64,000 bases of DNA from Candidatus Binatia bacterium (lineage in GTDB: Bacteria > Desulfobacterota > Binatia > HRBIN30). The first letter of the stretch is position 1, and every line of letters starts with the position of its first letter. The stretch lies in assembly GCA_038245295.1 (NCBI GenBank), contig JBBRSP010000008.1:1-64000 (forward strand), read 5' to 3'. Of this stretch, positions 9,393-12,730 are shown piece after piece. Below the pieces are notes generated by a model that had not been told where the DNA came from, made no database searches, and was given only the letters and a program-made list of their open reading frames with translations. The translations under genes were made by a program, and so were the position numbers.

Positions 9393-10613
9393 ATGGCGAT
9401 TTTTCGCTGGCAAGGAATTTCTCCGCGTGGGGAGGTGCTGTCGGGTGAGATGGAGGCACCAACGCGCGACGCCGTCTTGGTCCGTTTGCGTTCGCAACGG
9501 ATCCAGCCGATTCCAGACCGCATCAAGGAACGCGGCAAGGGGTTGGATCGTGAGCTTACCATTCCGGGCTTCAGCGATTCGATCCGACCGCGTGACATCG
9601 TTGTCTTCACACGCCAGTTGGCGACGATGATCGACGCTGGCTTGCCGATCGTCCAGTGTCTTGACGTTCTTGCCCTCCAGTCGCCAAACAAACAGCTGCG
9701 GAACGTCGTGCGTGGTCTCAAAGATCAGGTAGAATCCGGAAGTACGTTCACCGACGCGTTGCGCAAGCATCCGAAGCAGTTCGACGAGTTGTTTACCAAC
9801 ATGGTCGCGGCGGGCGAGGTCGGCGGTATTTTGGATACAATCTTGAATCGCCTCGCCACGTATATGGAAAAGGCGATGAAGCTGAAGGCGAAGATCCGCG
9901 GTGCGATGATCTACCCCGGGGTGGTCGTCAGCGTCGCCATCGTCGTGACCGCCATTCTGCTCATCTTTGTGATCCCGGTCTTTGCCGAGTTGTTCGAGGG
10001 TGCTGGCAAACATCTTCCGCTGCCGACGCAAATCGTGATGAACCTGAGCACTCTGACGATCAACTATTTCCCGTATCTGATTGTTTTGGCCGTCGCATTC
10101 GGCTTCGCGATCCGCCAGATCTACAAAACAGAGAACGGCCAATTGGCAATCGACAAGATGCTGTTGGCCTCGCCGGTGTTTGGCGATCTCATTCGTAAGG
10201 CCTCGGTGGCACGATTCACGCGCACCTTGAGCACTTTGGTTTCCTCCGGTGTGCCGATCCTCGACGCCTTGGCAATCACGGCGCGAACCTCCGGCAACAA
10301 GGTCGTCGAACGGGCGATCTTGTCGACCCGCGTAAGCATCAGCGAAGGCCGCACGATCTCCGAACCGCTTGCGGAGAGCAAGGTCTTTCCGCCCATGGTC
10401 TGCACGATGATCTCGGTTGGTGAGTCAACCGGCGCGCTGGATTCGATGCTGAACAAAGTTGCCGAGTTTTACGAAGAGGAAGTCGACAACGCAGTCGCCA
10501 ACCTCACCAGCCTACTCGAGCCGTTCATTATCGTTTTCCTGGGTACCGTAATCGGTGGGCTCGTCGTTGCGATGTATATGCCGATCTTCCAACTAGGAGA
10601 GGCTATCCAGTGA
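9393..10613 (+). CDS. pilC: type IV pilus platform protein PilC
   Basis: FTRQLATMIDAGLP, GEVGGIL, two T2SSF repeats, MYMPIF C-terminus. Confidence 0.96.
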   Translation: MAIFRWQGISPRGEVLSGEMEAPTRDAVLVRLRSQRIQPIPDRIKERGKGLDRELTIPGFSDSIRPRDIVVFTRQLATMIDAGLPIVQCLDVLALQSPNKQLRNVVRGLKDQVESGSTFTDALRKHPKQFDELFTNMVAAGEVGGILDTILNRLATYMEKAMKLKAKIRGAMIYPGVVVSVAIVVTAILLIFVIPVFAELFEGAGKHLPLPTQIVMNLSTLTINYFPYLIVLAVAFGFAIRQIYKTENGQLAIDKMLLASPVFGDLIRKASVARFTRTLSTLVSSGVPILDALAITARTSGNKVVERAILSTRVSISEGRTISEPLAESKVFPPMVCTMISVGESTGALDSMLNKVAEFYEEEVDNAVANLTSLLEPFIIVFLGTVIGGLVVAMYMPIFQLGEAIQ

Positions 10614-12730
10614 TGCTCGAATGGTGGCCGATCTCGGAGCCGCCCGAGCGGTTGCGGGAACGGTTGCAAGCGACACTGCTGGCCCGTGTCGCTGTCGTAT
10701 CCGTGTTCCTGGGGATGTTGGCGTGGAGCTTGCCGCATCGAGACAACCCCTACGTCGTCTCGGTCGGATTGCTGATGGCGGTGATCGCCGCGACGTATGC
10801 GTTCACGATTGCGTCGGCACTCCTGCTGTTGCGGCTGAAGAGGCTGAACGCGTTTGCCTGGGTTCAGGTCGGGTTTGATCTGGTGCTCATCACATGGGTG
10901 CTCTACATCACGGGTGGCGCCGATAGTCCGTTCGCCTTCCTCTACAATCTGGTCGTGCTTGCCGCGGCGACGTTGTTCGCTTCTCAGGGCGCGGTCGCGG
11001 CCGCCGCGGCGAGCTCGATTGCCTATGCGGCTCTGGTTGCCGTGTTGCAAGGCGGATGGGTTGCACGCCCCGATTACCCGATTCCTCCGGCGCCGGCCGA
11101 TGTTCATTTTGCCGTTCGTTTCGCCGCAACCAACGGAACATTCCTGTTGATCGCCATCCTGGGCGGTTCTCTCGTCAAACGGGCTCGGGTCAGTGAGCGG
11201 TTGCTGCAGGAACGCGAATCGGAGCGCGACCGCATTGCCAATCTACAAGAAGCGGTGGCGCGCAGTATCGAGAGTGCACTGATCACTACGGATGCCGAAG
11301 GCTGCATCACCTCGGCGAATCAGGTAGCCCGGGCGCTCACCGGAACCGCAGAGGCAGGCCTTGTCGGCCGCGATGTTGGCGACCTGTTCCCGCCCCTGCG
11401 CAACACAGCGAGTGGGCGTCTGCAGTTTCTCCAATCCTCGCCCAGTTCTCCGACCGAGTTCATGCATCGGTGTGGCGACGACGAGCGAACCCTGCGCTGC
11501 TCCGCTTCCCTGGTCCGCGATACCTATCAGAACCCGATCGGTGGGCTCTTGATTCTGCAAGACGTTTCGACGCTGCGGCGCCTCGAGGAAAAGGTCCAGC
11601 GGGACGACGAGGCAGCGGCAACCATGGCGCTGGGAGAGATGCCAGAAGAGGCGGTTCCCGTCGTCGATGGGTTCGTCGGCAATAGCCCCGGGATCCAAAG
11701 CGTCCGTCAGTTCATCGCTAAAATTGCCCGCACCGATGCCACCGTGTTGGTGTCCGGGGAGAGCGGCACCGGCAAGGAGCTGGTGGCGCGTGCCGTCCAC
11801 GCGCGCAGTGCCCGCGGCAGCGGTCCGTTTGTCACCATCAACTGCGGCGCAATCCCCGAGAATCTAATCGAGTCGGAACTTTTCGGGCATGCCAAGGGCG
11901 CCTTCACCGGGGCGATCTCGAATCGAGTCGGGCTGTTTCGCAGCGCCAACGGCGGAACCGTGTTCCTGGACGAGATCGGTGAGTTGCCGCTTGCGCTCCA
12001 GGTCAAGATGCTGCGTGTTCTTCAGGAGCATACGTTCACTCCGGTTGGTTCGGATACCCAGGTGACGGTCGATGTCCGAGTCATCGCCGCTACCAACCGC
12101 GGGCTCGCCGACGAGGTTGCCGCTGGGCGATTCCGCGAAGATCTCTTTTATCGGATCAACGTGCTCGGGGTTGATCTGCCGCCGTTGCGCGAGCGACGCG
12201 AAGACATCCCCTTGCTCTTGCACCATTTCATCCAACAGTTTGCCGATCTGCACCGCAGCCCCGTGAGTCGGCTGTCGGCCGGCGCCCTGCGACGTCTGCA
12301 AGACTACTCCTACCCGGGTAATATCCGTGAGCTCGAGAACATCATCGAACATTCGGTCGCTTTGGCGGAGGGCGACACGATCTTGGAGGACCACTTGCCG
12401 CCCTACGTGTTCCGCCCGATAACCTCACGGACGTCTCAACCTGGTTCCCCTGCCAGCGACCATCCGGAGGTTAGCGAGGTGTCTAGGCCGGTGCCTCCTC
12501 GGTGGGAGCCCCCACCCCCATCGATGTGCAACGGCAATCTCGACGACAGCCTGGCCGCGTATGAAAAGTCGATCATGCTGAAGGCCCTGGCCGAAGCCGG
12601 TGGCGTAAAGAAGCGCGCAGCCGATATCCTAGGGATTAACTATCGGTCGTTCCGCCATCGGTTACAGAAGTATGGATTGAACGACCCCGGGGATCCGGGC
12701 GATGCGCAAAACCCTGAACAGGCCCATTGA
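10610..12730 (+). CDS. PilS-type membrane sensor + PAS fused to sigma54-dependent activator (PilR-type AAA+ and HTH); no kinase or receiver domain
   Basis: About 6 TM helices with PilS-like D..LIT..LY.TGG..SPF.FLY, PAS ending LQDVS, then GESGTGKE, GAFTGA, FLDEIGE, FREDLFYR, PGNIREL and C-terminal HTH; occupies the pilS-pilR position. Confidence 0.9.
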   Translation: MMLEWWPISEPPERLRERLQATLLARVAVVSVFLGMLAWSLPHRDNPYVVSVGLLMAVIAATYAFTIASALLLLRLKRLNAFAWVQVGFDLVLITWVLYITGGADSPFAFLYNLVVLAAATLFASQGAVAAAAASSIAYAALVAVLQGGWVARPDYPIPPAPADVHFAVRFAATNGTFLLIAILGGSLVKRARVSERLLQERESERDRIANLQEAVARSIESALITTDAEGCITSANQVARALTGTAEAGLVGRDVGDLFPPLRNTASGRLQFLQSSPSSPTEFMHRCGDDERTLRCSASLVRDTYQNPIGGLLILQDVSTLRRLEEKVQRDDEAAATMALGEMPEEAVPVVDGFVGNSPGIQSVRQFIAKIARTDATVLVSGESGTGKELVARAVHARSARGSGPFVTINCGAIPENLIESELFGHAKGAFTGAISNRVGLFRSANGGTVFLDEIGELPLALQVKMLRVLQEHTFTPVGSDTQVTVDVRVIAATNRGLADEVAAGRFREDLFYRINVLGVDLPPLRERREDIPLLLHHFIQQFADLHRSPVSRLSAGALRRLQDYSYPGNIRELENIIEHSVALAEGDTILEDHLPPYVFRPITSRTSQPGSPASDHPEVSEVSRPVPPRWEPPPPSMCNGNLDDSLAAYEKSIMLKALAEAGGVKKRAADILGINYRSFRHRLQKYGLNDPGDPGDAQNPEQAH

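Follow-up and report, generated by a model that had tools for sequence, protein, structure and literature searches.

A PilS-type membrane sensor fused to a PilR-type sigma54 activator between pilC and pilA in Candidatus Binatia, probably a one-protein form of the PilS-PilR switch

The PilS-PilR pair of Pseudomonas aeruginosa, with its counterpart Nps-Npa in commensal Neisseria, consists of a sensor with a 6TM_PilS membrane domain and a PAS domain, and of an output protein with a sigma54 AAA+ domain and a helix-turn-helix (HTH) domain. It has been reported, in the passages of two papers that deal with this point, that PilS of P. aeruginosa contacts PilA within the membrane and, once pilin builds up, removes the phosphate from PilR (PMC6058289, PMC13170266). 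The subject of this work is a gene at 10610..12730, forward strand, of a 64,000-nucleotide stretch of Candidatus Binatia bacterium DNA (assembly GCA_038245295.1, contig JBBRSP010000008.1; "the window" below means this whole stretch), in which a PilS-type sensor and a PilR-type sigma54 activator are joined in one protein. It occupies the same genomic slot as pilS and pilR in the pilC-pilS-pilR-pilA loci of its phylum, before a pilA gene with a sigma54 promoter. The step that defines two-component signalling has been dropped from a well-studied pair, while both ends are kept under selection.

The nearest precedent is gonococcal Rsp, in which a PilS-like membrane part is joined to a PilR-like C-terminus; in the passages devoted to it, Rsp is described as a remnant, which represses according to one paper and has no apparent role according to the other (PMC10269533, PMC6528607). 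On that description Rsp keeps the DNA-binding domain only, whereas the fusion in the window keeps the PAS domain and an intact AAA+ domain and is found class-wide. One-component sigma54 activators with PAS or GAF input, such as NifA, TyrR, PrdR and DmpR, likewise have a sensor fused to AAA+-HTH without phosphotransfer, and in D. vulgaris 15 of the 37 enhancer-binding proteins are of this kind in the part of the source that counts them (PMC4641369). These proteins are soluble and bind small ligands, but the fusion is polytopic, descended from PilR, and has a PilS sensor. With the ToxR/CadC class of transmembrane transcription regulators it shares the design of a membrane-tethered one-component DNA-binding regulator, but, unlike them, it needs to assemble into an ATPase ring of the AAA+ type at a sigma54 promoter. 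In the census of transmembrane regulators (PMC10269533), "Sigma54" occurs in none of the nine supplementary files, and the domain list of the census may omit the AAA+ model; HTH_8 is found in 72 entries, the first 30 of which are all single-pass. No description of an AAA+-containing PilS-PilR fusion was found in the literature searched, a coverage that left out subscription journals and bioRxiv supplements.

Counted from GTG, the open reading frame (ORF) 10610-12730 encodes 706 amino acids (aa). The alternative start, ATG at 10613, overlaps the stop codon of pilC (TGATG), and the database protein record (P0002) has 705 aa; because of this coupling and of the recorded length, 10613 is the likelier start. 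In the Pfam scan, the N-terminal half contains 6TM_PilS (aa 13-198, E 2.6e-14; 10646..11203) and PAS (aa 215-324; 11252..11581), both of which are also delimited by conservation and AlphaFold models, and the C-terminal half contains Sigma54_activat (356-520, E 2e-70) with AAA_lid_14 (527-603), together at 11675..12418, and the Fis-type DNA-binding domain HTH_8 (648-688; 12551..12673), all on the forward strand. Walker A is at 383, GAFTGA at 430 and Walker B at 451, and the arginine finger and sensor II are also present. HisKA, HATPase_c and Response_reg have no match in the protein at E<=0.1, and all NCBIfam activator models fall below their own cut-offs on it. The sequence-only reading had described a single ORF with a PilS-like six-helix transmembrane (TM) part, PAS, an intact AAA+ domain and HTH, without H-box, HATPase or receiver, and had called it a one-component fusion of PilS-N and PilR-C in the pilS-pilR slot; the Pfam scan and the synteny agree with this, and the linker that it quoted matches the translation. 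Unlike PilS-PilR, the fusion is one polypeptide with a membrane-bound activator, and its control cannot use PilR phosphorylation or PilS phosphatase activity. By its domain content it is both a one-component sigma54 activator and a transmembrane transcription regulator, and it resembles PilS-PilR in predicted working but is not a member of that system, having no kinase, no receiver and not two genes.

In the AlphaFold model of the full-length protein (mean predicted local distance difference test score (pLDDT) 86.7, predicted template modelling score 0.52), the membrane helices are followed by a continuous helix 164-218, which links the last TM helix to PAS, by a helix 319-339, by a low-confidence stretch 338-344 (pLDDT <50) and then by AAA+ and HTH. 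In a structure search, the full-length model matched AAA+ domains only, and the TM model gave zero Foldseek matches at E<=0.001. Membrane domains of six helices in adenylyl cyclases (6r3q, 8sl3, 7yzi) and in P. aeruginosa ImcA (8wcn) could be aligned with the TM model at Z 10.5-13.6 (Z 13.0-13.6 with rmsd, i.e., root-mean-square deviation, 3.7-4.2), which is borderline for helical bundles. A complex prediction of TM domain and pilin scored 0.01, its controls did not fold, and it is left out of the evidence.

The junction, delimited at 11582..11674 on the forward strand by alignment, AlphaFold and contig coverage, consists of a short PilS-like post-PAS helix and a linker without H-box. The first part of the helix is retained, most clearly in basal members, and the rest of the linker shows no conservation and is rich in acidic residues (D/E at a median of one third), with 59-69 residues from the PAS-end Asp to Walker A. 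The sequence-only reading had taken ALGEM in this linker for the stub that precedes the H-box. In PilS, the Gly of the pre-H-box motif is at +21 from the PAS-end Asp in 48 of 51 sequences, while that of ALGEM is at +24; moreover, an ALGEM-type motif occurs in 1 of 83 parsable family linkers, namely that of the window (6 of 89 rows were not parsed). The idea of an H-box relic was rejected on these grounds, and since the Gly is displaced and the motif confined to the window, ALGEM is probably due to chance.

The relatives examined were 60 genomes of the same family, order and class, and the fusion is present in 45 of them (PF25323 alone was insensitive in genome searches). The gene directly upstream is pilC in 44 of the 45, and in the remaining one the contig starts inside the fusion gene. 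Seen from pilC, the 48 relatives with an orthologue comprise 44 with an adjoining fusion, three (G056, G057, G059) with pilA straight after pilC, and one contig end; among the 12 relatives without an assembled pilC orthologue, one has the fusion. Downstream lies pilA in 29 of the 45, the next cluster gene in nine, with seven undetermined. The TM-PAS and AAA+ parts are in a single frame in 43, one further gene being cut by a contig end and one frameshifted in the N-half; no H-box pattern occurs in the 44 parsed relatives, and a kinase or receiver is never found inside the gene. As for the protein database, 30 of the 35 N-half matches are clusters with the AAA+ half attached and five are PilS kinases at 26-31%; none of the best 120 C-half matches has a receiver, and their source names point to Candidatus Binatia/Binatota.

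The organism is known from metagenome assemblies only, a circumstance that would favour an assembly deletion or a private lesion, but this explanation is hardly credible and was refuted. The junction is at the same position in all 43 relatives that have both sides in one frame, and about 120 further protein clusters share the fusion layout. In addition, the bridging of the junction, which the sequence-only reading had proposed as a check, was found in contigs of two samples of one study: that of run X1, which may be the source, spans 10400-11785, and that of run X2 spans 11409-11758, both without differences. The fusion is real, conserved and lineage-wide in Binatia, and the proposed search for the same architecture beside pilA in other genomes was answered by the relatives described above. 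A kinase-type PilS was also seen in the same family, on a 3-kb contig (L076, G011); it groups with PilS of other classes and is possibly contamination or transfer.

The two halves were traced in the phylum, where the N-half matched 173 of 251 genomes. Sixty phylum loci were fetched, 40 by score across families and 20 mostly for long open frames, and are not a random sample: 57 have a kinase PilS and three a fusion. An adjoining REC-AAA-HTH gene is present in 41 of the 57, the order pilC-pilS-pilR is found in 21 and pilA comes next in 11, so the separate arrangement is seen in genomes of the window's own phylum; a scan of genome contigs with P0035 also returned PilS-PilR loci, which were those of Gemmatimonadota and not of Myxococcus or Geobacter. 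The AAA+ domain of the window is closer to 26 phylum PilR sequences than to its best paralogue. Fusions and syntenic PilR form one clade that excludes the genome's paralogues (support 83 in the AAA+ tree), the support being 98 in an AAA+HTH tree with all 24 paralogues and 99/99 in a further AAA+HTH tree; PilR of P. aeruginosa, Myxococcus and Geobacter stood outside the sequence set of these trees. By this phylogeny the AAA+ half is descended from PilR. The Binatia fusions are a single clade (100/100, concatenated halves), and the nearest non-fusion relatives of the N-half are PilS. Both kinships proposed from the sequence are supported; the tree of the N-half gives no root.

Selection acts on both ends of the fusion. 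Of 89 family proteins, 86 keep Walker A, 79 keep GAFTGA, 87 keep sensor II and 88 have the recognition-helix pattern of the HTH. Within the membrane, five polar residues of the Binatia fusions are those of PilS: R26 (43/43 vs 55/55 PilS), Q86 (43/44 vs 56/56), D90 and S106 (each 44/44 vs 56/56) and Y112 (44/44 vs 53/56), and all five are kept in the three fusions found outside the class. When AAA+ identity is matched, fusions are as well conserved in their TM part as intact PilS/PilR pairs are (TM identity of, for instance, 0.35 against 0.28 and 0.42 against 0.36; the pairs are not independent), and on this comparison the sensor evolves no faster in fusions than in intact PilS. The five residues are immediate targets for how PilS-type sensors read pilin.

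These data bear on a reading in which the protein would be a working sigma54 activator of pilA that takes no account of pilin, the TM part only anchoring, dimerising or localising it (e.g., at the pole), with near-constitutive pilin expression as the result. The PAS-AAA+ linker is acidic, unconserved and of low model confidence, lineages do not share one form of junction and PAS is missing from some fusions (P0197, P0241), which suggests that loose coupling suffices; according to a title in the reference list of PMC6058289, moreover, the TM domain of PilS directs it to the pole. But the sensor residues and their rate of change are as in intact PilS, and a plain anchor needs no six helices kept across a whole class, so this reading is considered unlikely.

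The putative target is pilA itself (13257..13664, forward strand; Pfam and sequence), which encodes a major type IVa pilin with mature F1 at 13284 and E5 present, and whose product would also be the ligand. R24 of PilS and E5 of the pilin matter for sensing, which is taken here as background and not as evidence. The position assigned by the sequence-only reading, between pilC (9393-10613) and this pilin, was confirmed. The sigma54 -24/-12 promoter of pilA (13110..13125, forward strand) matches the consensus perfectly and is the sole perfect match in the 6.6 Mb genome. Among 30 fusion-pilA regions, 24 have a sigma54 motif with no more than one mismatch and 28 have one with no more than two, the shuffled expectation being 0.34 in total. 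The genome (G000) encodes an RpoN box, and neither a separate PilS nor another PilR-like activator was found in it.

Further upstream, motif matrices indicate a candidate activator-binding region with degenerate TGTCAC-type boxes (12985..13080, forward strand). Such a box, about 60-140 bases upstream, is enriched in the fusion-pilA regions (Gibbs score 473 vs 195-211 for shuffled regions) and is shared with those loci of the phylum in which PilR is separate: of 19 promoters that belong to separate PilS/PilR loci, 8 score above the 95% null with the matrix trained on fusions, and inside the phylum 7 of 10 do. The box is not precisely defined, because a 17-bp matrix held to strict palindromy ended on one half-site only, and the exact sites in the window are uncertain, because the best one (13063-13079, score 14.1) is nearer the promoter than in most relatives; no PilR site for Geobacter was found in the literature searched. 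The fusion very probably activates pilA from the sigma54 promoter, and this is much safer than pilin as its signal. It is very improbable that the protein is a non-activating remnant or repressor, for which the described PilS-N/PilR-HTH chimera of N. gonorrhoeae would be the model, repressing or roleless in the relevant passages (PMC10269533, PMC6528607), since the AAA+ motifs are intact family-wide, the sigma54 promoter is kept at pilA, and the genome has no other PilR-like activator.

The genome has one more gene for a major-type pilin (G000:C34, about 36400-36540, minus strand), with a sigma54 motif of its own and a TGTCAC-type box that is weak; it is a possible additional target of the fusion.

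Therefore, the reading preferred here, to which a probability of roughly 55% is given, is that the PilS-PilR pair lost its kinase core and receiver and became a single protein of the inner membrane, with the pilin input kept and routed to the assembly of the AAA+ domain; the textbook two-protein switch was probably rewired into one protein. In this scheme, the HTH would bind TGTCAC-type boxes upstream of pilA and the AAA+ domain would open its sigma54 promoter, while the retained six-helix sensor would read unassembled membrane pilin as PilS does, the state of the pilin reaching the AAA+ domain by way of the TM6 helix, PAS and the short helix. Abundant pilin would most likely keep the protein in a dimer without activity, and depletion of pilin would let the ring assemble. 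Since the linker is acidic, variable and predicted to be disordered, control by oligomer state or by PAS-AAA contact is likelier than rigid mechanical coupling. If this mechanism is true, a polytopic membrane protein has to assemble its AAA+ ring on DNA, and the ATPase is gated directly by a ligand that is itself a membrane protein.

The activator could instead be regulated by another input, such as a PAS ligand, a membrane partner (PilC, minor pilins or the product of the gene after pilA), the state of the membrane, or proteolytic release of a soluble part. Seven PAS residues (R270, F273, L274, Q275, R296, C297 and T305) are conserved in Binatia fusions and not in PilS, the TM model resembles, at borderline Z, the receptor bundles of adenylyl cyclases and ImcA, that is, a general-purpose transducer fold, and cleavage might occur in the exposed linker. 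The TM core that does not vary is that of PilS, the synteny with pilC and pilA is kept and PAS is dispensable in some lineages, which argue the other way, and this alternative is doubtful.

Several observations weigh against pilin-to-ring control by the fusion. The linker between PAS and AAA+ is loose, and the invariant polar TM residues may be structural or serve dimerisation rather than pilin binding. The box in the window is degenerate (leave-one-out score 4.8, 30-bp model), and pilA is not adjacent in 9 of 45 relatives; in the five of these nine that were searched, a pilin with a sigma54 motif lies elsewhere in four, and the box exceeds the 95% null in only 1 of 11 pilin regions. The N-half tree is unrooted, with only long-branch paralogues as outgroup. 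Frameshifts occur in or around the gene in four relatives (L035, L053, L071, L075) and are probably assembly errors. Moreover, G056 and G059 (L092 and L091), in which pilC is directly followed by pilA, keep a good sigma54 motif, which means that a sigma54-type pilA promoter can persist without the fusion; neither a PilS-type sensor nor a close PilR-type activator was found in these two genomes with the queries used. In G057 (L093), pilA follows pilC without a sigma54 motif.

Beyond Binatia, the 401-genome sample of the phylum contains only the same three fusions outside the class. These (L160 in G092, L166 in G082, L167 in G076) lie in the pilC slot in three families, and at diagnostic positions they resemble PilS and not the Binatia fusions. 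A profile search of 50%-identity representatives gave, among the best 149 examined, 68 with a PilS-type TM part and AAA+ and without the canonical H-box pattern, of which 51 form their own clade (support 99). The ESM Atlas puts this clade in a cluster of 54 members, of which 11 have a known phylum, most often Bdellovibrionota; a cluster of 68 Binatota members lies beside it. A metagenome scan with P0153 of this Bdellovibrionota-labelled clade gave seven loci and no fusion.

The fusions also differ in their end points: directly after PAS in P0143 and P0190, after the post-PAS helix in most members, and with a HisKA-like segment retained in P0202 (Pfam HisKA match) and in P0204, P0209 and P0241 (by eye). 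These four have neither HATPase nor receiver, P0202 keeps a His in the H-box region, and in the tree the four do not fall within the clade that PilR of the window's phylum forms; they are possibly intermediates or separate fusion events. P0197, P0241 and other matches of about 574 aa lack PAS, 6TM_PilS being joined straight to AAA+-HTH. A single origin for 18 fusions, nine of them without genomic context here, was rejected by the approximately unbiased (AU) test (p-AU 1e-6; five changes, bootstrap 5-7). In a narrower AU test, with Binatia and the three phylum fusions on concatenated halves, one clade was not rejected (p=0.07), and the free tree separates them. Because the single clade of 18 was rejected, the narrower set giving p=0.07, the fusion likely arose several times, judging from these trees.

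Such independent fusions, some of which end after PAS, others after the post-PAS helix or after HisKA, and some of which lack PAS, make the transition from two components to one testable side by side. A wider claim is put forward tentatively, at somewhat less than even odds: PilS-PilR would have collapsed several times independently (in Binatia, the Bdellovibrionota-labelled clade, scattered lineages of the phylum and the degenerate-HisKA forms), each product counting membrane pilin and gating a membrane-embedded AAA+ ring at a sigma54 promoter. If this is true, the outcome is a phosphorylation-free transmembrane enhancer-binding protein gated by a protein ligand, and a natural series for the transition from two to one component.

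As for the surroundings, pilB (6474-8222) precedes pilT (8236-9369), which precedes pilC (9393..10613, forward strand), the platform protein gene and upstream neighbour of the fusion, identified from the ORF list, Pfam and synteny. A separate pilT ORF was not detected in L055, L061, L064, L072 and L073, where pilC comes after pilB and the fusion is kept. Two or three tandem pilins follow the fusion in L033, L042, L044, L047-L051 and L059. After pilA of the window, a GC-rich hairpin and a T run (13687..13720, forward strand; read by eye) resemble a terminator. The next ORF (13768-14760, 330 aa) has no Pfam/NCBIfam match, and is kept together with an ABC ATPase and a permease in the pil cluster of many relatives. 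Farther away, sigma54-like motifs with one mismatch are found at 49698-49713 and 52346-52361, each near the start of an ORF of about 480 aa.

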